Part shown: positions 3,955-63,696 of the stretch, in pieces
How the letters are laid out: each line of letters starts with the position of its first letter
Numbering within the stretch: the stretch's first letter is position 1
DNA from: a virus
DNA: 64,000 nucleotides
Reading direction: 5' to 3' (one strand)
IMG/VR virus record: IMGVR_UViG_3300011417_000001
Made by a program: the position numbers and the translations under genes
The notes under the pieces: model-generated
Told to the model about the DNA's origin: nothing
What the model saw: the letters and a program-made list of their open reading frames with translations, nothing else
Databases searched by the model: none

Positions 3955-3997
3955 CCGCAGGTCGGTTTCGGGTTAGTTGCTGACTTGCGGTTTTTTT
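3955..3997 (+). terminator. Rho-independent terminator
   Basis: The stem pairs CCGCAGGTC (3955-3963) with GACTTGCGG (3982-3990), including one G-U pair, and is followed by T7. Confidence 0.6.
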
Positions 3998-4084: not shown

Positions 4085-5014
4085 TTGAAAATCTACATCA
4101 CCTCCGAAGATAGCGGATATGTCAGTACCGCAGCCCTGCAAGCGGATGTTCATGGGGTGTATCACAAAGCAACATGGTACAGCTTACAGGATGCTAACGG
4201 TAAGTTAAATCAAATAAATCTTACCGCTTATTATAACCGATGTAAAGCGTATGTAGCAACCGGCAAGAAGCTGATGATAGGCATTACTGCCGGGACAACT
4301 TCCTCCGCTTGCCTTTATCCGAGTGTTAATAAGTTACACTTTAAAGAGTACCGGGATGGCACACAAATCATGGACGAGTTCTGGCTTCCAAATGTCATGG
4401 ATGTGGATTACTCAAACAAATGGCTAAACTTCCTCAACCTGTTTTTCGCATGGATTAAATCTACGGATATTTGGAAGGATGTGGATATGCTAAAGCTCAC
4501 AGGGATTAACCGCGATAGCCAAGAGATAAGGCTTACCACCCAAACACCCTTTATCATCAAAACACCGCTTGCCACCGATGCCGATGCTATATGGACTTCG
4601 GTAGGCTATAATAAACAAGTAATCATTAACCTTTGGAAAAACATTGTTGATAAGGTAAAGTTACAGGGAAAGGATTTTACAATGGCGTTAATTACCAACA
4701 AGGCTTTCCCGCTTGAAAGTTTTCCCTTTCAGAACACTACTCTAACGCTTAGGGATTACGTTGTTTTAAAGGGAGGCTATGTTCAGAGTAACGCCCTGAC
4801 AGAAACCGCAGGCACGCCCGCAATAGTAACGCAGTGTCCTAAGTTCGGTTTTCAGGTGCATCGCCAGAAATATGATAAGATAATCGTTACCGATGAAGTT
4901 TTTGAAAACGTATTAAGAAATGGCATGAACAAAGGAGCGAAGTTTGTGGAGATATGGGATAGAAATGCGGTGAATCATAAGGAGGTGGTGGAAAAGATTA
5001 ATGCGTTAAATTAA
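4085..5014 (+). CDS. Hypothetical protein (cargo next to the integrase); start uncertain
   Basis: The long ORF at 3977-5014 runs through two terminator hairpins at its 5' end. A start at the in-frame TTG at 4085, or at the ATG at 4274, is therefore more plausible. No motif was recognised. Confidence 0.45.
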   Translation: MKIYITSEDSGYVSTAALQADVHGVYHKATWYSLQDANGKLNQINLTAYYNRCKAYVATGKKLMIGITAGTTSSACLYPSVNKLHFKEYRDGTQIMDEFWLPNVMDVDYSNKWLNFLNLFFAWIKSTDIWKDVDMLKLTGINRDSQEIRLTTQTPFIIKTPLATDADAIWTSVGYNKQVIINLWKNIVDKVKLQGKDFTMALITNKAFPLESFPFQNTTLTLRDYVVLKGGYVQSNALTETAGTPAIVTQCPKFGFQVHRQKYDKIIVTDEVFENVLRNGMNKGAKFVEIWDRNAVNHKEVVEKINALN

Positions 5015-5476
5015 GCCCAATCCTACTATGCTGCCAATTATCAACAGCCGCCAATACCATGCTAATTTAATTTTGTGACAGAATATAAACGCCACTAATC
5101 CATAAATTATTATTTCAAATATTTCTACTTTGTGAGGATTACCAATCAGTTCATCAAATAAATCATTTACCGTTATAGATAGCAGCCCCACAGTCAGCGA
5201 GTGGTCAATAATATTGTAGGTGTTTAAGAAAAGATATTGAAGAATTATCAGCAGCGAAATCAGGTAGCCGATGTACCAAAACTTATCCCCGCTTAATGGA
5301 ACGCATTCACAAACAGGCAGCAGCCGGTAAAGGTTGGTGTGGATAAGAATAATGACTAACGCTGTGCGTACGCCATATCGGTTAGTGAGGTCTTGATGGC
5401 GGATGAGAACCCGTTTTAAGGTCTGCCGCAACGTCATCAGCCTTGTCGTCAAATTCGCTTTGTTGAATCTCGTCAT
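5006..5476 (-). CDS. Multi-pass membrane protein; start may be the internal Met at 5437
   Basis: Several hydrophobic segments are present (ALVIILIHTNLY, WYIGYLISLLIILQYLF, IIIYGLVAFIF, LLIIGSIVGLGLI). Confidence 0.45.
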   Translation of the reverse strand: MTRFNKANLTTRLMTLRQTLKRVLIRHQDLTNRYGVRTALVIILIHTNLYRLLPVCECVPLSGDKFWYIGYLISLLIILQYLFLNTYNIIDHSLTVGLLSITVNDLFDELIGNPHKVEIFEIIIYGLVAFIFCHKIKLAWYWRLLIIGSIVGLGLI

Positions 5477-5618
5477 TGGCGTTCATTTCCGCTTCCTCCT
5501 CACCGAACTCAACTTTTACTTTGTAGCAACCTTCGGATTCTATCAGCTTTCGTTTAAAGGTTGGGGTGAAGGTATAATACGCGGTTTCTTCTTCCGTGAT
5601 TACTTTGTAATATGCCAT
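5382..5618 (-). CDS. Hypothetical acidic protein
   Basis: 78-aa ORF whose start directly abuts the stop of the PAS gene. Confidence 0.4.
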   Translation of the reverse strand: MAYYKVITEEETAYYTFTPTFKRKLIESEGCYKVKVEFGEEEAEMNANDEIQQSEFDDKADDVAADLKTGSHPPSRPH

Positions 5619-31933: not shown

Positions 31934-33151
31934 TCAATACTTTAAAAAGGTTTTGTGAAAAGTATTTAACAAATATCTTACACAATCAAGTAGGTGTGTT
32001 TGGTGCTTGTCTTTTGTCTTGTCAATGTCGCCTTCGGAATCTACCTCGCAGTATATCATGTCTTCGATTAAGTATTCACAAGAGGGGTCAATATTTATTT
32101 CTCCGTTCTGCAAGATGGAGTTCATAAGTACTCTTGTATCTTGCGCTGCCGGATTAACTGCGGGTTGTTTCATCTGCGTGTCTACCAAATTTAATTCTTT
32201 TTTTATTACCGAGTAGTAGTTAATGTTTCCTCTCGTTAGTGCGCTGCGGTTGTGCCCGGTTGCGTCACCTGTGATTATAAACACTGAATCAGGATAGGCT
32301 ACTTTTATTCTTTGACATAGCTCATAAATATCAGATTGTTCAAGCCTAAATTCTTTGATGATGTTTACTTTTCCTGTTTCTGTTGACTGCGCGGCAATGC
32401 AGGTTATCGGGTCAACGTTAAAATCGAACGCTAACTGTAAATACTCCTGTGGATTGTACTCGCACTCTTTGATGTGCTTTTCTTTTGAGAATGCATAGGC
32501 AAAAGGATTAAGTGAAAGGTCAACGTCATCCGCCATGAACTCGCACCTAAATGTCATGCTGTCTAATTGATGCTTGACTGTTTCTATTTCCGCATGGTCT
32601 ATAAATGGATTGTCGTAGGTGGTGAATTTAAACGCTGCCCAATCATCATACTTTGTGCAGGTTCGGAATAGCTCTTTAAAGTAGGTCTTGCCGAATTTAG
32701 GTGTAGATAAAAACCATGCCGTCCCTTTGTAGTCGGTTAGTGTTGCTCTGATGGTCTGCTCCCACGCCTCTTTAAACTTGTTTGCCTTCTCGCACTCGTC
32801 AACTATTACAAGGTGGTACTTTCTCCCCCTGCCTGAATCGGGGTTGTCCATTGACCAGATGTCAAGCGTTCCGTTGGTTATCGTTGTTATCTGTTTTACC
32901 TGTTCGTCCTTTGACCTGATGACTTCAAAAAGGGTGTTCTTGAGCATGTTCCATGTCTCGTAAACATCTTTGTAGGTCGGGGCGTAGTAGGCTACATATT
33001 TGCCGTCTAAAAGCGCATTTACTGCAAGGTCTGTGGCGATTTCAGTCTTCCCCCACCGTCTTCCGCATTTAAGAACGTTAAACCGCTTCTGCCCCTGTAT
33101 TACTTTCTCCTGATTCGGATGGAGGGTTTTCAGGTTTATCGTTAGCTCCAC
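31934..33151 (-). CDS. terL: Terminase large subunit
   Basis: Walker A-like CGRRWGKT near the N-terminus and Walker B LVIVDECE. The C-terminal part looks nuclease-like (DFNVDP, ITGDATG). Confidence 0.85.
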   Translation of the reverse strand: MELTINLKTLHPNQEKVIQGQKRFNVLKCGRRWGKTEIATDLAVNALLDGKYVAYYAPTYKDVYETWNMLKNTLFEVIRSKDEQVKQITTITNGTLDIWSMDNPDSGRGRKYHLVIVDECEKANKFKEAWEQTIRATLTDYKGTAWFLSTPKFGKTYFKELFRTCTKYDDWAAFKFTTYDNPFIDHAEIETVKHQLDSMTFRCEFMADDVDLSLNPFAYAFSKEKHIKECEYNPQEYLQLAFDFNVDPITCIAAQSTETGKVNIIKEFRLEQSDIYELCQRIKVAYPDSVFIITGDATGHNRSALTRGNINYYSVIKKELNLVDTQMKQPAVNPAAQDTRVLMNSILQNGEINIDPSCEYLIEDMIYCEVDSEGDIDKTKDKHQTHLLDCVRYLLNTFHKTFLKY

Positions 33152-41354: not shown

Positions 41355-41361
41355 GATGGCG

Positions 41362-41369
41362 CAAAGATA
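41362..41369 (-). promoter_or_regulatory. -7 box TATCTTTG (minus strand)
   Basis: The plus strand reads CAAAGATA. This is one of two divergent promoters in the 41355-41560 intergenic region. Confidence 0.45.
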
Positions 41370-41468
41370 TAAATAAATATTTAATTAAATGATAAAAAAA
41401 TAAATAAAAATAATTGCCTTGATTTTCAAACACTTGCTATATTATTGCAATATTTCTTTTATTATTAC

Positions 41469-41498
41469 TTGTACATATTAAAATAAGCATTATGTTTG
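41469..41498 (+). promoter_or_regulatory. Bacteroidota-type promoter (cTTG, 19 nt, TATGTTTG)
   Basis: The -7 box is at 41491-41498 and TTG at 41469-41471. Confidence 0.5.
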
Positions 41499-41559
41499 CA
41501 CCGTATTTATAAACAATCATTCACTAATTAATCAAACAATTTAAAAACGTATCAATAAA

Positions 41560-41754
41560 ATGAACACAAATTTTGAAAACATTTCCGCGCTTCGTAAAGC
41601 TGCATCAGGTAAACAGTTATTTGTTAAATGCGGGCAGTTGCCTGTATTGATTAAAAAGTCAGCAATTAACCGCGCTTTACTTGGGCAAAAGTTTTACGCC
41701 TCTGCCTTTGCTACTGACCGCGCACTGTATATTAATTCTATTCAATTATATTAA
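41560..41754 (+). CDS. Hypothetical protein
   Basis: 64-aa ORF downstream of the promoter. Confidence 0.35.
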   Translation: MNTNFENISALRKAASGKQLFVKCGQLPVLIKKSAINRALLGQKFYASAFATDRALYINSIQLY

Positions 41755-41953
41755 TATGAAAGTTGAAATTAACACTTTCTCTATGAATAGGGGGATATCA
41801 CCTTTAAACACTTAGAAAAAATGAAGAATGAAAAAGAGAAAAACGACAAAAAAATTGAAAATCCCGAATTAAAAAAACAATGTGTAACTATACATGGGGA
41901 TTCGGGGCATTATTATTTATCCAAAGGGATAAGCCATATTAACGGTATTCCTG

Positions 41954-42517
41954 TTATACAAACGACATCGCCAGACGAAGTTCCCCCCTTGGAACAGATG
42001 GAGGATTAATATCATCTATTATTCCCTTTTGCAAAGCAAACTTTACGTCCTTGCTTTCACCTTGATTAAACAAAGTATTAATTTCTTCTGCTGTTAATTT
42101 TGTTCTATTAACAAAGGTATCTACTGTTCTACTTTCCATCCCCTCAAGCATACTAAGGTTTTCTTTTATTAGTGCCTTCCCAACGGGGGCATTAAAGCTA
42201 AGAGTATAGCCATGAAATAAAAAAGCAGCGTTTGGGGCTGCGTACCTCTTTCCGCCTGCTATAAAAATAATATTGGCAATAGAATCAATAGTTCCAATAT
42301 TGTGCATTGTTACAGTAAGTTTACTTTGCAGCGAAATCAGAAAATTATACAAAGTAAATCCAGCATCCACATCACCACCTTTTGACGAAATAAAATAATA
42401 TAATTCTGTTGGATTATATTTACTAATTACATCAGTAGTAAATTGGATGAATTTATTAACCTTTACTAAATCAATACCATCATAAAAATTAATGTAAACT
42501 GTTTTTTGATTTTCCAT
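41954..42517 (-). CDS. ClpP-fold serine peptidase (ClpP/S49-like)
   Basis: Aligns by eye with the E. coli ClpP core: YFISSKGGDVDAGFTLYNFL versus YINSPGGSVTAGMAIYDTM. The catalytic Ser context is GTIDSIA and the His context is LFHG. Confidence 0.65.
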   Translation of the reverse strand: MENQKTVYINFYDGIDLVKVNKFIQFTTDVISKYNPTELYYFISSKGGDVDAGFTLYNFLISLQSKLTVTMHNIGTIDSIANIIFIAGGKRYAAPNAAFLFHGYTLSFNAPVGKALIKENLSMLEGMESRTVDTFVNRTKLTAEEINTLFNQGESKDVKFALQKGIIDDINPPSVPRGELRLAMSFV

Positions 42518-42605
42518 TAATAAAAAAATTATTTATATTGAGGGAATGGATAATGGCTGCATTATAATCAATAATGATATTTAATTTATTAAAAAGAAAA
42601 GGTCT

Positions 42606-43160
42606 TCATTGAGTATTAAAATAGTTCTGAATGCCTACACAGTTCATTATTAGCGTTGTTCCAATCATACTTCCATCGCCATCTAAGTTTAGTTTATCGA
42701 AATAACCAATTATAATGTAAAGATATTGCGCATCAGTTAGTTCAGCTAATACAATAGGATGTATGCTTTTTCTTGGAGCTGAAGAATAAAGAGTTTCAAA
42801 GTCTGCACTAAATTTATGATGAGAAATAATATTTGATAAAGCCTGGACTGTTCCATCGACTTTTTCATCAAGTTTGTTATCCATAAATAACGCAACTAAA
42901 TTTTGTGGAGTAAGTTGAGTGTAGTATTCACGAGTACTTTCTGTTCTAACAAAAGCTAATCTATTTGAATCTGTAAATAAAAGCCCGTTTACGCTTGGCG
43001 GTTGGGCTTGCTGTGTTTCTTGTTGAAATTTTTCCTTTATCTCAAAAAAGTCCAATATTGGAATTTCGCATTCTAAGCAACAAGATTTCGGAAGTTCTTT
43101 AACTTCGGTTTCTATAAAATAATTTTTGTCTTTTAAGAATTTTATTAAATCACTGAACAT
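42606..43160 (-). CDS. Hypothetical protein (middle gene of the ATPase operon)
   Basis: The ATG at 43160 lies 1 nt after the ATPase TAA. No family was recognised. It contains FVRTESTREYY and NLDGDGS. Confidence 0.5.
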   Translation of the reverse strand: MFSDLIKFLKDKNYFIETEVKELPKSCCLECEIPILDFFEIKEKFQQETQQAQPPSVNGLLFTDSNRLAFVRTESTREYYTQLTPQNLVALFMDNKLDEKVDGTVQALSNIISHHKFSADFETLYSSAPRKSIHPIVLAELTDAQYLYIIIGYFDKLNLDGDGSMIGTTLIMNCVGIQNYFNTQ

Positions 43161-43161
43161 A

Positions 43162-44493
43162 TTAATTATTAATAAGGTCACGCATTGGTTCAGCTAATTT
43201 CTTATAAATAGGATTTTTATCATTCGTTACATCTATAAAAGTTGTAAATCCACCTTCCGATTTATCGCCAAAATAAAAACGAGTTTTGTTGCTTACTAAT
43301 GTATTTGCCTTACTGAACTTGGAAAGGGCTTGAATCAGATATGGCGAATGTGAACTAATTACAACAGGTATTCCACTTGCGCATAAACTCACAATGATTT
43401 TAGCGTATTCAATTTCCCATTGTGGGTGCAAGTGAACCTCTGGTTCATCTATAATTAATAGCGAGTTTTGATTAACGTATGTAGGATTTAGTAATAATTG
43501 GAGTAATCCTAATGATTTTACTCCAGTAGCTATGTTAAAAGCCCGGACAATAGCTCCATTGTTTTTTATAAAAACTATTCCACCCTCATCACTTTTAAAT
43601 TTCATTTCTCCAGAAATAACAGATTTAATCATTTTAAATATTTCCGCAAAGACATCACTACTAACAGGAGGTGAAATTTTAACTTTTTGAGAAATGTCAG
43701 AATAGTGCAATGGTAAATCCCCTCGCTGATTTCCCGTTGGGGAAAATGCTAAACTATTAGTAATAAATTCTGCCAACTGTACAATCGTTGGCGTTTCAAT
43801 TATTGTTGCATCTTTTAAATAGAACGGATTGTCAACCTTAAATGATGAAGTTAAGTTTTTTTCTACTACAAGTTTAAGAATAGACGTTACCCCTTCTTCA
43901 ATATTAATACTAAGTTCATTGTCTGTTAAAAGTGAATTAATTTGACTTTGAAATATTCTTTGAATGATGTTTCTGTCAAAATATGTTTTATATTTTGCTT
44001 CATCCGTTGGAATATCCTCTAAAGTCTGAATAATTTTTTTTTCGTATATGTTGATATTTAAAATTGCATCTTCAAACCTCTTTTTCGTGGAATCAGGTGC
44101 GTTTACTTTGGTTGATTCTAAATCCTCCTTTACTTTGACAATATATTCCCTAACCTCGTTTGCAAGTTCGGCATTAACTGATTGCACTCTGCCAATGTAA
44201 AGATTTACTAATTTTTGAACTAAAATATTCGTATTAAATTTTTGAGCCTTATCTTGAGTGAATGGAATAACAGACCTATGGGACGAATTAATATTATTTA
44301 AATTGTTCGTTGACTGGGAATACTTCTCGATATTCATAAAAGTATCGGCATTATTTATTGTTTTAATAATCGAATAAATACCTTTGCTTATAAAAGATTT
44401 CCCTGTATCATTGGTTCCGGTTATAACAGTTAGTCCATTAACTTCAATAGAAGCCTCTTTAACAATGCCGAAATTTTTAAAAATGAATTTCAT
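43162..44493 (-). CDS. ABC-type (AAA_15/AAA_21-like) ATPase
   Basis: Walker A GTNDTGKS at aa 26-33, Walker B/D-loop LLIIDEPEVHLHPQW, and H-loop VISSHSPY. Confidence 0.85.
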   Translation of the reverse strand: MKFIFKNFGIVKEASIEVNGLTVITGTNDTGKSFISKGIYSIIKTINNADTFMNIEKYSQSTNNLNNINSSHRSVIPFTQDKAQKFNTNILVQKLVNLYIGRVQSVNAELANEVREYIVKVKEDLESTKVNAPDSTKKRFEDAILNINIYEKKIIQTLEDIPTDEAKYKTYFDRNIIQRIFQSQINSLLTDNELSINIEEGVTSILKLVVEKNLTSSFKVDNPFYLKDATIIETPTIVQLAEFITNSLAFSPTGNQRGDLPLHYSDISQKVKISPPVSSDVFAEIFKMIKSVISGEMKFKSDEGGIVFIKNNGAIVRAFNIATGVKSLGLLQLLLNPTYVNQNSLLIIDEPEVHLHPQWEIEYAKIIVSLCASGIPVVISSHSPYLIQALSKFSKANTLVSNKTRFYFGDKSEGGFTTFIDVTNDKNPIYKKLAEPMRDLINN

Positions 44494-44840: not shown

Positions 44841-45713
44841 ATGGAAAACACAAAATTTACTTACAAAGAATTTAAAAGAATCTATCCGACTGATACAGCA
44901 TGTTTGCATAAAATATTCATGCTTCGATATGGACATTTAACCCATTGTCCTAAATGCAAAGAACCCGCAGCATGGCGCAGAATTACAACAAGACGTTGTT
45001 ATCAATGCAGACATTGTTACGAGCAATTCTACCCAACAGCTGGAACAGTATTTCACAATGTACGCAGACCTTTAACCGAATACTTTTACATTATGTTTTT
45101 ATTTACAACCACTCGTCATGGTGTGGCAGCAAAAGAAATTGAAAGGCAATTAGGTTTGCATTATAAAACCGCTTTCAGAATGTGTCATGTAATCCGCAGG
45201 TTAATGGATAAAATAGGAACGGATAAATTAAAAGGATTTGTTGAGGCGGATGAAACCTATTTTACGCATGGTAAAAGGGATGGCGAAAGGGGTAAAACAC
45301 CCGATACACAAACACCCGTATTTGGAATGATAGAAAGAATGGGAAATGTAAAAGCGTTTGCATTGGATGAAGTAAAAAAGCGGGTAATCTTTCCGTTAAT
45401 TGAACAGCACATTGACAAGTTAGCAAAATTAAGCACGGATGAATTTGCGCTTTATACTAATGTTGAAAAGGAGTTAGGCATTAAGCATGGAGCAGTAAAA
45501 CACGCAATGGGACAATATAGAGCGGGCGACATAACCACAAATACTATTGAGGGGTTTTTCGGGCAATTAAAAAGAATGGTTTACGGTGCGCATATTCACA
45601 TCAGCAAAAAGTATTTACAGGTATATGTTTCTGAATGTGTATTCAGATACAACAATAGAAAAAATCAAAATGGAATGTTTGAGGCTATTCTAAAGAATCT
45701 CCCTTTAGCTTAA
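44841..45713 (+). mobile_element. IS1595-family (ISXO2-like) transposase gene; terminal inverted repeats not identified
   Basis: An N-terminal zinc ribbon (CPKCKE...CYQCRHC) is followed by a DDE-type domain (VEADETY, STDEFALY, NTIEGFFGQLKR). Confidence 0.8.
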
Positions 45714-46934: not shown

Positions 46935-47306
46935 ATGAAAACAAAAATAAATTTAAGTATTGACCGGGCGCAGGAGCTTGCCAATATGCTACACACTAAC
47001 ATTTTTGAGGGCGTTAATGCAGCCGATGAAATTGTGTTTCGCTGTAATTGCATGACAATAAAACAGGCATCTGAAAAGGTTAAATTCGCTTTTGGGGATG
47101 GTGCGTATTTTATTAAAGTGGTGCAAGTGCCGGTTAAAAAAGTTAGTCAGGATGACCGCAACCACGAAGCGCAGCAATTAATTTATGAAGTATTAGAACA
47201 TATTTCAGCCGGGCGAATGAATATAGACCTGATGAAACAGAAACTAATTCAGGCAGCCAAAAATTTACCCTGCAAACTTCATTCAGGTTTATCTAAATAT
47301 AATTAA
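46935..47306 (+). CDS. Hypothetical protein
   Basis: 123-aa ORF. Confidence 0.45.
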   Translation: MKTKINLSIDRAQELANMLHTNIFEGVNAADEIVFRCNCMTIKQASEKVKFAFGDGAYFIKVVQVPVKKVSQDDRNHEAQQLIYEVLEHISAGRMNIDLMKQKLIQAAKNLPCKLHSGLSKYN

Positions 47307-47377
47307 TCCAATAACTCAAAGAACACAATTCAAAAATACAAATTAATAATTAAATAACAAAGCTATGACACAAAAAA

Positions 47378-52191: not shown

Positions 52192-52353
52192 TTATTTTTT
52201 TACAAGTTTAAGTAAGTGAATTTCAAGATAGTTGTTGAGAGAGGGGCAAGTAGATTTTTCAGCAAGCTCCTGCAATTTCTTTTTTAAGAATTTGTTTTTT
52301 GCCTGCGGGCGCACTACTATTAGCCCTGTATTATCTCTTTTGGTTTTGTTCAT
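52192..52353 (-). CDS. Ribbon-helix-helix (Arc/CopG-like) regulator, putative
   Basis: Starting at the internal Met gives MNKTKRDNTGLIVVRPQAKNKFLKKKLQELAEKSTCPSLNNYLEIHLLKLVKK, a strand-helix-helix pattern. The longer ORF would run into its own promoter. Confidence 0.45.
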   Translation of the reverse strand: MNKTKRDNTGLIVVRPQAKNKFLKKKLQELAEKSTCPSLNNYLEIHLLKLVKK

Positions 52354-52371
52354 TGTATAATAATTATTGTG

Positions 52372-52379
52372 CAAATGTA
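52372..52379 (-). promoter_or_regulatory. -7 box TACATTTG (minus strand) for the RHH operon
   Basis: The plus strand reads CAAATGTA, 19 nt upstream of the 52353 ATG. Confidence 0.45.
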
Positions 52380-52455
52380 TAACCATTTTTTGATTTGCCA
52401 AATTATTTCTTAAAATAGTTATTAACACCCCCTGTTAAAAATATTTTCTTACAAA

Positions 52456-52486
52456 TTTGTTTATTTCATTTATTTGCTTAATTTTG
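52456..52486 (+). promoter_or_regulatory. Strong Bacteroidota-type promoter (TTTG, 19 nt, TAATTTTG) pointing into an ORF-free region
   Basis: TTTG is at 52456-52459 and the -7 box at 52479-52486. It is divergent from the RHH promoter. Confidence 0.5.
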
Positions 52487-52491
52487 CACCA

Positions 52492-53032
52492 CCTAAAATA
52501 ACCAAACCCAAAAGTTCAATGCTGTCCATTGAATACACAAAGATAGTACTCCCGTCCGCTTCTTCGCAGACAAACGAGCCCGTCAATTATTGGACAGCAA
52601 TAAATTGGCGGGTTTTCGCTTTTTTAGCGGTGTAATTAAATCTGTTTCGCACACGGGCAACCGCCATCTTGGATGCCTAAATGAAAGTTAAGGTTGACCT
52701 ATCATAGTCAGACATGAAGCGATAATGCACTAATAAATGGCTTGTGCTAAACCCATTCAAAGTTCTGATGACAGCAAACCGGAAAATGTCCTGCTCTGTT
52801 CCAACATAACAACAGGCGACTGATACCTAAAGAGGGTTTGAATCCGGTGATGCTCACGTAAAAAACAGTAATCAGGGGCGTGGAATGATAATATACCAGT
52901 GCTGTTAAAGATGATTAACAATAACAGCAAGCTTCTATTCAGGGCATTAAACCCCTCTATCAGGAGAAGATGTTGATATTACACAGCAAACAAAAAAACA
53001 TCAAAAAAAGTACCCCCTATTCCTGTAATAGC
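52492..53032 (+). ncRNA. Candidate large structured non-coding RNA; alternatively a replication origin or switch region
   Basis: No ORF of 60 aa or more exists in any frame over about 600 nt. A consensus promoter lies upstream. Many helices are visible, for example 52514-52520/52526-52532, 52520-52528/52591-52599, 52606-52611/52661-52666, 52900-52906/52922-52928 and 52831-52839/52950-52959. ACAGCAA occurs four times. Confidence 0.3.
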
Positions 53033-53194
53033 TTAGATGGTGTTGTTTTTTAAAATCTTTTCAATGTGGCTTAGGCAGGATTCCGCTGGCTTGCCCATAG
53101 CCTCATAACAACTAATTATACCAAGTATAGCCCGCCACATTTCAGTCCCTTCTATGCCATTAGCCATTGTTTTTTTAAGTGTTTCGTAGTCCAT
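53033..53194 (-). CDS. Hypothetical small protein
   Basis: 53-aa ORF found by hand (MDYETLKKTMANGIEGTEMWRAILGIISCYEAMGKPAESCLSHIEKILKNNTI). It is the last ORF of the minus-strand operon. Confidence 0.35.
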   Translation of the reverse strand: MDYETLKKTMANGIEGTEMWRAILGIISCYEAMGKPAESCLSHIEKILKNNTI

Positions 53195-53250
53195 CTTTAA
53201 ATTATTTTAATGTTCCGTTTTTTAATTTCTGCTTTTTCCTGTAATTGTAG

Positions 53251-53667
53251 TTAGCAAACAATACCGCTTCGGGGTGAATCTTTTAATATTTTTTGCAGCC
53301 TTGCAATTTCTGAATAATGATATTGTATTTTCTTTTCTATGTCGTTGGGCTGAACGGTTGCATTTATTAATACCCGGAATTTGTTAAAATCTTGCCTTAG
53401 CCCGGCAGCTAAAGCCCCCCTTGTGTAGTTTTTCATAAGATTCATAATAGAGGCATGGTCTCGGTTAAGCATAAAACCCACTTGCGCATAAGAAAACCCT
53501 TTAGCGCGGAAATAACACGACATTAACGCCCGCTGATAAACAATATCTGTTTCCCTGCATTCGGATAAAACCCTGTTTATATTTAACCAAACAGAATATG
53601 CTTCAAAAAACTCTACGCACAAATGAAGCTCATCCAATAATTCGGTTTCCGGGATAGCGGTTCTCAT
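53251..53667 (-). CDS. DnaA domain IV-like helix-turn-helix protein
   Basis: IVYQRALMSCYFRAKGFSYAQVGFMLNRDHASIMNLMKNY parallels the DnaA C-terminal pattern R..aMYL.r.lt..S...IG..fgRDHsTV. Confidence 0.5.
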   Translation of the reverse strand: MRTAIPETELLDELHLCVEFFEAYSVWLNINRVLSECRETDIVYQRALMSCYFRAKGFSYAQVGFMLNRDHASIMNLMKNYTRGALAAGLRQDFNKFRVLINATVQPNDIEKKIQYHYSEIARLQKILKDSPRSGIVC

Positions 53668-56958: not shown

Positions 56959-57085
56959 TTTATATAATAAATTGACGCTACAAAAATATACACAATATTT
57001 ATTGATTCAACAAATGGCGTTAAATTATTTCTCCTTGATACTTAAATAGTTAAATAAAAGTAGCATAAAAAAGTTACTTTTAGTG

Positions 57086-57115
57086 TTGCATAATAGGATT
57101 ATTGATATATCTTTG
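57086..57115 (+). promoter_or_regulatory. Bacteroidota-type promoter (gTTG, 19 nt, TATCTTTG)
   Basis: The -7 box is at 57108-57115 and TTG at 57086-57088. It drives the plus-strand module. Confidence 0.5.
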
Positions 57116-57130
57116 CATCAAAATTATAAT

Positions 57131-57280
57131 ATGAAACAATCAAAAAACAATAGGAAAATCGGGCGGAAAAAGCTACCTTTGGGAGATAAAAAGAAGGTAA
57201 TCCGCGTATGGATAAAAGAGAAGCACTTCGCATCCGCCAAAAAACAAATCAACGAACTAGTCCGAGAAATAGAAAAATGA
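57131..57280 (+). CDS. Small basic protein
   Basis: Starts at an internal ATG 16 nt after the -7 box: MKQSKNNRKIGRKKLPLGDKKK... Confidence 0.35.
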   Translation: MKQSKNNRKIGRKKLPLGDKKKVIRVWIKEKHFASAKKQINELVREIEK

Positions 57281-58246: not shown

Positions 58247-58621
58247 ATGCCGCGCACAGCTACTAATATGAAAAAAGAAGATTTAAAAATAGGGCAAGTT
58301 CTTTATTTAAAGCCAATAAACAATGCCTCAAGGAGAGGGGATGGCGAAATAAAAGAAACCTACATCACTAAAATAGGCAAAAAATATATCATAGTAGACG
58401 GGTATTATGGCAGATTCTTTATTGATTCATTGCTACAAGATGCCGGACAATATTCCTCTAACTATCAAGCATACACTACAAGACAGCAAATCGAGGAGGA
58501 AAGAGAAATGCAGACACTTAGAGATAAATTAAGAAAATATTTTGATGGCGTGTGGGGCGAATCGCGGAAACTCACTCTACAACAACTTAGAAAAGTAGAT
58601 AATATTATTTCAGAAAAATGA
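58247..58621 (+). CDS. Hypothetical protein
   Basis: 124-aa ORF. Confidence 0.4.
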   Translation: MPRTATNMKKEDLKIGQVLYLKPINNASRRGDGEIKETYITKIGKKYIIVDGYYGRFFIDSLLQDAGQYSSNYQAYTTRQQIEEEREMQTLRDKLRKYFDGVWGESRKLTLQQLRKVDNIISEK

Positions 58622-61370: not shown

Positions 61371-61398
61371 AGGCGGGGTGTAAAAGCCTCGCCTTTTT
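61371..61398 (+). terminator. Rho-independent terminator (+)
   Basis: AGGCGGGG pairs with CCTCGCCT and is followed by TTTT. Confidence 0.6.
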
Positions 61399-63665: not shown

Positions 63666-63696
63666 TTTGTATTATTAGATTATTGTATTATATTTG
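63666..63696 (+). promoter_or_regulatory. Strong Bacteroidota-type promoter (TTTG, 19 nt, TATATTTG)
   Basis: TTTG is at 63666-63669 and the -7 box at 63689-63696. Confidence 0.5.

Follow-up and report, generated by a model that had tools for sequence, protein, structure and literature searches.

What does a phage keep in 679 nucleotides (nt) of its genome that carry no recognisable gene? The stretch in question occupies positions 52354-53032 of the window analysed here, i.e., the whole 64,000 nt of DNA taken from the IMG/VR virus record IMGVR_UViG_3300011417_000001, and comes from a phage that had not been described before, whose genome measures ~63-66 kb and whose promoters are of the Bacteroidota type. 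An initial annotation, made from the sequence, had offered a large structured RNA or, as an alternative, an iteron-type replication origin. Our own preference is tentative and held at somewhat less than an even chance. It is for a regulatory intergenic region in which two promoters stand back to back and one of them produces a small RNA of ~135 nt that ends at a terminator. This arrangement would leave the ~400 nt that follow the predicted RNA unaccounted for.

Coding potential of the stretch

The stretch (hereafter, the gap) is left empty by gene callers on public copies of the genome, and it is three times as long as any other gap of its kind within the window. No open reading frame (ORF) of 60 amino acids (aa) or more was found in any of the six frames across the 822 nt between 52429 and 53250, the longest such interval of the window (the runner-up measures 257 nt). 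The six-frame closure described in the initial annotation therefore holds, as does its figure of 38 aa for the longest plus-strand ORF with an ATG start. When TTG starts are allowed, ORFs within the gap reach 53 aa on the plus strand and 57 aa on the minus strand. In each of the six frames, stop codons are as dense as in random sequence of this composition, and every frame contains all three of them. Codon-usage log-odds, trained on the long genes of the phage itself, are negative in every frame of the region 52400-53000 except for +4.3 bits over the 38-aa ORF, whereas the same scan assigns +7 to +33 bits to real neighbouring genes. The stretch appears to be non-coding, which is unusual for this genome. 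Recoding of stop codons was considered and rejected: a search of the window for tRNA and tmRNA genes found none, and hence no suppressor tRNA, which together with the presence of all three stop codons in each frame argues against it.

Two promoters in a back-to-back arrangement

The sigma-A consensus of Bacteroidota consists of a -33 box TTTG, a spacer of ~19 nt, and a -7 box TAnnTTTG that extends from -12 to -5 with respect to the transcription start (PMC9723704). Two sites in the gap match this pattern exactly (Table 1). One of them, the rightward promoter P(+), had been pointed out in the initial annotation, and its orientation is as was stated there: it diverges from the promoter of a ribbon-helix-helix (RHH)-like gene and converges on the minus-strand genes upstream. 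Over the whole window, the pattern TTTG-N19-TAnnTTTG has six exact matches vs. 2.4 expected, and five of the six are intergenic. Given the published box-to-start geometry, transcription from P(+) is predicted to start at the A at 52491, and that of the RHH-like gene near 52367, which would leave a 14-nt leader before the ATG at 52353. The -33 boxes of the two promoters are separated by 53 bp. The palindrome centred between them, TTAACA-N5-TGTTAA, is the sole exact copy in the window, looser copies occurring at chance frequency; it is a putative operator shared by both promoters. A sigma-70 scan and the terminator scan that accompanies it gave the same counts as shuffled sequences and were uninformative. 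Other exact matches to the Bacteroidota promoter pattern in intergenic DNA are located at 47331-47361 (minus strand) and 63666-63696 (plus strand). The former, directed from 47361 to 47331, aims into the 3' end of the plus-strand ORF 46935-47306 and may drive an antisense or small transcript.

A predicted small RNA and its putative terminator

About 85 nt past its predicted start, transcription from P(+) would enter an element resembling an intrinsic terminator. The arms of its hairpin (52576-52592 and 52598-52615) enclose the loop GACAG, and the hairpin has z = -5.65 and a free energy (dG) of -25 kcal/mol; as a hairpin, it was absent from the list of complementarities given in the initial annotation. 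When hairpins abutting a T-rich tail were ranked over both strands of the whole window, the element came second of 57. Its peers at the ends of transcription units are situated at 3955-3990, after the integrase gene, and at 61372-61393 and 61438-61409, between convergent genes. Three of the stem pairs are G.U on the plus strand, corresponding to A.C mismatches on the minus strand, and a good U-tract is present on the plus strand only, the minus-strand tail being merely GUUUGUCU. Since both features are confined to one strand, the element looks like a plus-strand terminator, perhaps a weakly bidirectional one.

With so strong a terminator-like element at this distance from the start, the default product of P(+) would be an RNA of ~135 nt and not an ornate RNA of 0.5 kb. 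Two constituents expected of a small-RNA gene are present in the sequence, namely its own promoter and, within a few hundred nt, a G+C-containing hairpin with a U-tract directly behind it. In the predicted RNA, an A-rich 5' end free of pairing would be followed by a hairpin of 8 bp (52514-52534), a further, small one (52554-52571), and the terminator. The plus-strand fold of 52492-52630 has z = -3.87, and none of 200 shuffles was equally stable. A 9-bp pairing between TGCTGTCCA (52520-52528) and TGGACAGCA (52591-52599) is not convincing as an anti-terminator, because it would open just the top four of the 17 terminator pairs.

Taken together, these elements suggest that the gap may be a regulatory region at the border of two modules of early genes in a novel phage of the Bacteroidota type, with its left 280 nt forming a compact cassette of the two sigma-A promoters and the palindrome centred in the 53 bp between their -33 boxes. 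The leftward promoter would transcribe the RHH-like gene and the operon that it heads, and probably the promoter pair gates an early operon. P(+) would transcribe the structured RNA of ~135 nt in the opposite direction, as far as the strong intrinsic terminator. We infer that this RNA would be a regulator, acting either in trans on host targets or in cis on read-through from the upstream minus-strand genes; it would be fully complementary to the read-through transcript that enters from there. A further role of the hairpin may be to shield the RHH operon from transcription that arrives from upstream. The other ~400 nt might be transcribed as a tail when the terminator is occasionally read through, or might be what is left of a former plus-strand gene.

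Several observations weigh against a small RNA transcribed from the plus strand. The segment 52492-52630 folds as well on the minus strand (z = -4.45), and the 135-nt segment may have a DNA-level or a minus-strand role. Complementarity between the gap and the rest of the phage is not above that of shuffles; neither is the result of a duplex scan against 118 translation-initiation regions, which yielded no outstanding phage target. The 38-aa ORF, which lies inside the predicted RNA, has a leader of typical length and the weakly positive coding score of +4.3 bits. The plus-sense composition of the 406 nt to the right suggests plus-strand transcription past the terminator, or former coding. No homologue of the gap was found in the collections searched, so that neither covariation nor conservation lends support, and the copies of the gap on >16 contigs from JGI, ENA, and Logan are 100% identical.

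The gene at 58247-58621 encodes a protein with a phage ProQ C-terminal-like domain (PF24203, E = 5e-17), which might be of interest should regulatory RNAs be made by the phage.

Table 1. Location of the predicted features of the gap and its surroundings.
Feature	Position	Strand	Description
Gene-free stretch	52354-53032		679 nt, from the RHH-like gene to the 53-aa gene; no gene called on any public contig
Sigma-A-type promoter P(+)	52456-52486	+	TTTG-N19-TAATTTTG, exact; TTTG at 52456-52459, TAATTTTG at 52479-52486
Sigma-A-type promoter of the RHH-like gene	52372-52402	-	TTTG-N19-TACATTTG, exact pattern match
Palindrome TTAACA-N5-TGTTAA	52422-52438		Centred between the -33 boxes; read from the sequence
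Predicted small RNA, ~135 nt	52491 to ~52625	+	P(+) start, fold, terminator-like end
Intrinsic-terminator-like element	52576-52625	+	17-bp bulged hairpin, then UUUUCGCUUUUUU (52613-52625)
38-codon ORF	52519-52635	+	MLSIEYTKIVLPSASSQTNEPVNYWTAINWRVFAFLAV; inside the predicted RNA; micro-protein as the alternative reading
ACAGCAA, copy 1	52594-52600	+	In terminator loop and upper stem
ACAGCAA, copy 2	52771-52777	+	
ACAGCAA, copy 3	52924-52930	+	3' arm of hairpin TGCTGTTA...TAACAGCA (52900-52929)
ACAGCAA, copy 4	52983-52989	+	
Featureless 406 nt	52627-53032	+	Composition of plus-strand genes; no recognisable feature
RHH-like gene, 53 aa	52192-52353	-	Heads the downstream minus-strand operon; called on public contigs
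53-aa gene	53033-53194	-	Last of the upstream minus-strand set; coding score near zero
DnaA-domain-IV-like protein, 138 aa	53251-53667	-	Stand-alone helix-turn-helix protein; weak own match, family-level support
Gap and RHH-like gene of L053 (also L054)	4880-5617 (RHH-like gene 5462-5617)		In the numbering of L053; promoter TTTG-N20-TACTTTTG

Longer transcripts and a small protein as alternatives

The large structured RNA proposed at the outset was not borne out. The Rfam scan that had been recommended, run with Rfam 15 (including GOLLD, ROOL, group I and II introns, ribozymes, and riboswitches), gave no match at the gathering score in the whole window; within 52200-53300 at E<=10, it returned just two sub-threshold chance matches, SNORD79 and mir-242. 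The complementarities and repeats listed in the initial annotation are all present to within +/-1 nt, but the complementarities are no more frequent than chance would have them. There are 20 exact complementary 7-mers vs. 17.3+/-5.3 in dinucleotide shuffles and two 9-mers vs. 1.4, and the 8- and 10-mers are likewise at the shuffle level; hence, such a list is what chance yields. The duplication AAACCCA...AAAGTTC is also present, but its score is at the shuffle level, and an internal duplication within the gap was rejected as a chance-level signal. The excess of folding is limited to ~135 nt. A fold of the whole region of 546 nt has z = -1.9 on the plus and -1.4 on the minus strand. In a sliding scan of 100 nt, shuffles are outperformed at 52500-52675, where z lies between -2.5 and -3.7 on both strands, and nowhere else in the gap does the local z stay below -2.5 at several positions of the scan; the signal is weak at 52900-52999 (z = -2.6, plus strand) and z is ~0 across 52600-52899.

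A long plus-strand non-coding RNA of at least 0.55 kb could nevertheless arise if P(+) transcripts read through the hairpin and covered the whole gap, which we consider unlikely. The hairpin would then serve either as a structural domain or as an attenuator under regulatory control, and the transcript, continuing antisense into the 53-aa gene and the DnaA_C-like gene, would act by antisense, by transcriptional interference, or as a new structured RNA. Such a transcript would fit the exact promoter match of P(+), the plus-sense composition of the 406-nt tail, the absence from this tail of a minus-strand terminator or consensus promoter, and the restriction of the ACAGCAA enrichment to the plus strand, and TGCTGTCCA is able to pair with the terminator loop and upper stem. 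It would, however, have to pass the strong terminator ~85-135 nt past the start, and the alternative 9-bp helix breaks only 4 of its 17 pairs; no plus-strand terminator-like element is found near 53000-53060, z is ~0 at 52625-52900, and the chance-level complementarities, the whole-region z of -1.9, and the lack of an Rfam match speak against it as well. If true, the whole 0.55-kb transcript might be a lineage-specific long regulatory RNA. Very unlikely, in our judgement, is a moron-like micro-gene, in which P(+), a 28-nt A-rich leader, and the 38-codon ORF (MLSIEYTKIVLPSASSQTNEPVNYWTAINWRVFAFLAV) make a small protein, the hairpin being an imperfect terminator or a translation-coupled attenuator. 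The length of the leader agrees with the median of 24-32 nt reported for Bacteroidota (PMC9723704), this frame is the only one in the gap to score positive for coding, and its G+C content is above that of the flanking promoter regions. Yet the stop codon (52633-52635) is located 8 nt past the U-tract; terminated transcripts would therefore be non-stop, which favours an RNA product over an mRNA. The coding score, moreover, is just +4.3 bits vs. 7-33 in real genes, the ORF has no family match, and gene callers skip it on the full-length public contigs examined.

The question of an origin

The gene adjacent to the gap had been described as DnaA-domain-IV-like, and at the family level its product is confirmed as a helix-turn-helix protein. 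The matches of the 138-aa protein itself are weak (PF08299, E = 0.0012; NF001154, E = 2.4e-4), but an exhaustive search retrieved a family of 116 representatives, stand-alone proteins of ~130 aa, and PF08299 is matched by 29 of the 30 scanned members (best E = 6e-11). The family keeps the DnaA domain IV signature NRDHAT and occurs in phage early/replication modules; in other phages, it is found near helicase and polymerase genes and in two cases adjoins PIF1 or SNF2 helicases. The AlphaFold2 (AF2) model of the 138-aa protein has a predicted local distance difference test (pLDDT) score of 48. Since the family is widespread and uncharacterised, a search for its binding sites would naturally begin with the gap.

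The four copies of ACAGCAA reported in the initial annotation are present, all on the plus strand, and are modestly enriched (p ~0.005): 10 of 2000 shuffles contain any non-low-complexity 7-mer four times. Their spacings are irregular (177, 153, and 59 nt). Of the shorter ACAGCA/TGCTGT, 470 nt contain six copies, vs. ~0.9 per kb in the rest of the window, and AAACCC/GGGTTT is present five times within 604 nt; the bipartite arrangement AAACCC-N10-TGCTGT (52504-52525) recurs inverted at 52594-52615. At that, ACAGCA is over-represented on the coding strands of the phage generally (63 observed vs. 29 expected). A repeat search and Tandem Repeats Finder found no tandem or long direct repeats and no iterons in 52300-53100. 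Iterons are three or more direct repeats of ~15-22 bp, as a rule in phase, and only the 7-nt core ACAGCAA recurs here. DnaA boxes (TTATCCACA-like, with at most one mismatch) are absent from the gap, and sites with up to two mismatches have a density of 3 per kb in the gap vs. 3.95 per kb in the background. No inflection was found in the genome-wide skew. The iteron-type origin thus has neither iterons, nor DnaA boxes, nor a skew inflection to its credit, and a box-type binding region at ACAGCAA may exist as a minority possibility.

That the gap is a replication origin or an initiator-binding region, in which the 138-aa protein binds ACAGCAA-type boxes that lie dispersed in either orientation, like the DnaA boxes of oriC, seems to us quite improbable. 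The segment 52355-52490 (22% G+C, i.e., 78% A+T) would serve as the unwinding element, activated by transcription from the two promoters; it is also simply a promoter region. The truly DnaA_C-like nature of the protein family, its helicase and polymerase neighbours, the clustered motifs with their inverted bipartite repeat, and the low G+C content of this segment all favour such a role, as do three independent contigs that terminate inside the quasi-palindrome. It is contradicted by the irregular spacing and the 6-7-nt length of the common core, the lack of iterons and tandem repeats, the background frequency of DnaA-box-like sequences, the missing skew inflection, and the general abundance of ACAGCA on coding strands. 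Furthermore, the family has no AAA+ domain, other members of it (L051) have no long gap nearby, and the gap near its member in L053 has no motif in common with ours. An equally small chance is given to the 135-nt quasi-palindrome, with its ACAGCAA and AAACCC boxes, being an origin or a DNA-level end or nick site that the adjacent protein recognises. If true, this would be a new initiator-origin pair for a Bacteroidota phage family with 116 representative proteins, no less and no more novel than the 0.55-kb transcript considered above. The other alternative, which we also regard as unlikely, is a mostly functionless spacer. In this view, erosion of a plus-strand gene, e.g., a repressor-like one once under P(+), would have left the 406 nt at 52627-53032 at a recombination joint between modules, and the remnant would mirror an opposite-strand 125-aa gene of L053. 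Their composition (A.36, C.21, G.20, T.24) is close to that of plus-strand genes (.38/.19/.20/.23) and mirrors the flanking minus-strand genes. They contain no ORF of note, fold, repeat, coding signal, or consensus promoter on either strand, a GC-skew module boundary falls at the gap, and the L053 gene (378 nt) occupies the corresponding place. The marks of a decayed gene are missing, however: stops are already random in the three plus frames, log-odds are negative, and neither tblastn nor tblastx revealed similarity to phages or related loci, L053 included (a tblastn search of phages with the three concatenated plus-frame translations had no match at E<=1). In addition, 400 nt of junk are seldom kept by compact phage genomes, and the terminator would sit upstream of the supposed gene.

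Contig ends were observed inside the gap. Position 52606 is the exact end of two contigs that differ in assembler and sample (megahit ERZ27267681 and Logan SRR6448217), and 52581 that of a JGI contig; further ends are at 52714, 52844, 52847, and 52909. The ends at 52581 and 52606 could be due to a physical end of the DNA or a nick, to a structural variant present in a minority (e.g., insertion of an insertion sequence), or to coincidence.

Very AT-rich intergenic DNA (20% G+C) with short tandem repeats is situated at 41355-41559 and 41369-41853, upstream of a long minus-strand gene set (~5-41 kb) that includes the large terminase gene (31934-33151). For an origin or a late promoter region, this segment is a more conventional candidate than the gap.

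Other candidates were tried and rejected. A miniature inverted-repeat transposable element or another insertion would have a terminal match of just 9 bp of low complexity. A packaging site is unlikely because the large terminase gene is 19 kb distant. As for an invertible promoter switch, no pair of inverted repeats brackets either promoter, and the public contigs that span the gap share both orientation and sequence.

Comparative genomics

Homologues in related phages, which the initial annotation had suggested looking for, were not found in the collections searched by protein synteny, DNA patterns, and a covariance model. GenBank phages gave no match by blastn, megablast, or tblastn. In IMG/VR, the flanking proteins and DNA patterns retrieved nothing or unrelated domain matches; JGI metagenome contigs contained only two chance 20-mers, and GTDB genomes had no match. 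The single-sequence covariance model of the 136-nt element matched itself only, among 26 sources. Copies of the phage in many JGI, ENA, and Logan assemblies are 100% identical over the stretches examined (up to ~8 kb), and ~60 kb of aligned flanks contain two single-nucleotide polymorphisms only, at 53377 and 50978. The flanking proteins have almost no relatives, and protein-guided synteny identified two distant relatives only (L029 and L050), in which other genes replace the gap.

One distantly related phage (L053/L054) carries a homologue of the DnaA_C-like protein. At a distance of 1.3 kb downstream of that gene, it has the opposite-strand 125-aa gene, a 582-nt ORF-free gap, and an uncalled 51-aa RHH-like gene, whose promoter (TTTG-N20-TACTTTTG) is of the type described above. 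This gap has no sequence similarity to the window, no Rfam match, and no excess fold (z = +1.2). The arrangement, which speaks in favour of our preferred reading, is an architectural parallel and not homology. In L053, a DnaA-box-like sequence, TGTGGATAT, overlaps the start region of the TTTG-N20-TACTTTTG promoter.

Comparison with known systems

Temperate phages have short regulatory RNAs of ~70-140 nt that end at a terminator, e.g., OOP of lambda and Sar of P22. The predicted RNA resembles them in its length, in its intrinsic terminator, and in the constitutive-looking promoter in an early region that fires against the surrounding operon. Unlike OOP and Sar, which overlap a coding gene or its ribosome-binding site, it would overlap intergenic sequence only, barring read-through; moreover, it shares no homology with them and belongs to another host phylum. 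Intergenic small RNAs of Bacteroides and Flavobacterium have been mapped by differential RNA sequencing (PMC7366714; PMC9723704). They share with the predicted RNA the -33 TTTG/-7 TAnnTTTG promoter, the organisation as an independent unit, and a structured RNA of ~100-200 nt, but are chromosomal and experimentally detected, whereas the phage-borne RNA is a prediction. GOLLD and ROOL are similar to the gap in their phage association and an ORF-free length of ~0.6 kb, and differ from it in that the gap has no Rfam model match, no multi-domain fold signal, and a terminator after ~135 nt.

At the DNA level, the gap is similar to oriC and the lambda origin as non-coding DNA that adjoins a DnaA-domain-IV-like gene and contains a short motif scattered in both orientations and an AT-rich transcribed segment. 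In contrast to oriC with its DnaA boxes and the lambda origin with its O-protein iterons, it offers no iterons of 15-22 bp, no DnaA-box consensus, no skew evidence, and a putative binder without AAA+. Switches of temperate phages of the lambda PR/PRM type also have back-to-back promoters, here within ~125 bp, with the gene of a small DNA-binding regulator (here a putative one) on one side and a palindrome between them. Unlike in lambda, the other arm would yield a short RNA and no repressor protein, and the main divergent junction of the phage is elsewhere, at 56959-57207.

If the RNA is real, it would join a very small number of regulatory RNAs that have been proposed for Bacteroidota phages, the phylum being one that lacks Hfq-type paradigms. 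As the case is built on one sequence that has no relatives, its value is that of a specific and cheaply testable prediction, not of a discovery.

Flanking genes and genome context

The 53-aa product of the RHH-like gene has a strand-helix-helix AF2 model with a pLDDT of 70. No sequence match was found for it in Pfam, NCBIfam, or PDB, and no Foldseek match at E<=0.001; its description as RHH-like follows from the model and the sequence pattern. The GC skew is ~0 for 49-52 kb and from -0.11 to -0.14 for 53-57 kb, both gene sets being on the minus strand. This difference between co-oriented sets suggests that the gap marks a module or mosaic joint between two early-gene sets, and it likewise speaks for our preferred reading.

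The low-GC segment at 41-47 kb (~31-34% G+C) contains an IS1595-family transposase gene at 44841-45713 (DDE_Tnp_IS1595, E = 3e-31). At 41954-44493, an AAA_21/AAA_15 (AbiEii-like) ATPase of 443 aa adjoins a ClpP-like protease gene, and this pair could be a phage-borne defence or exclusion cassette.

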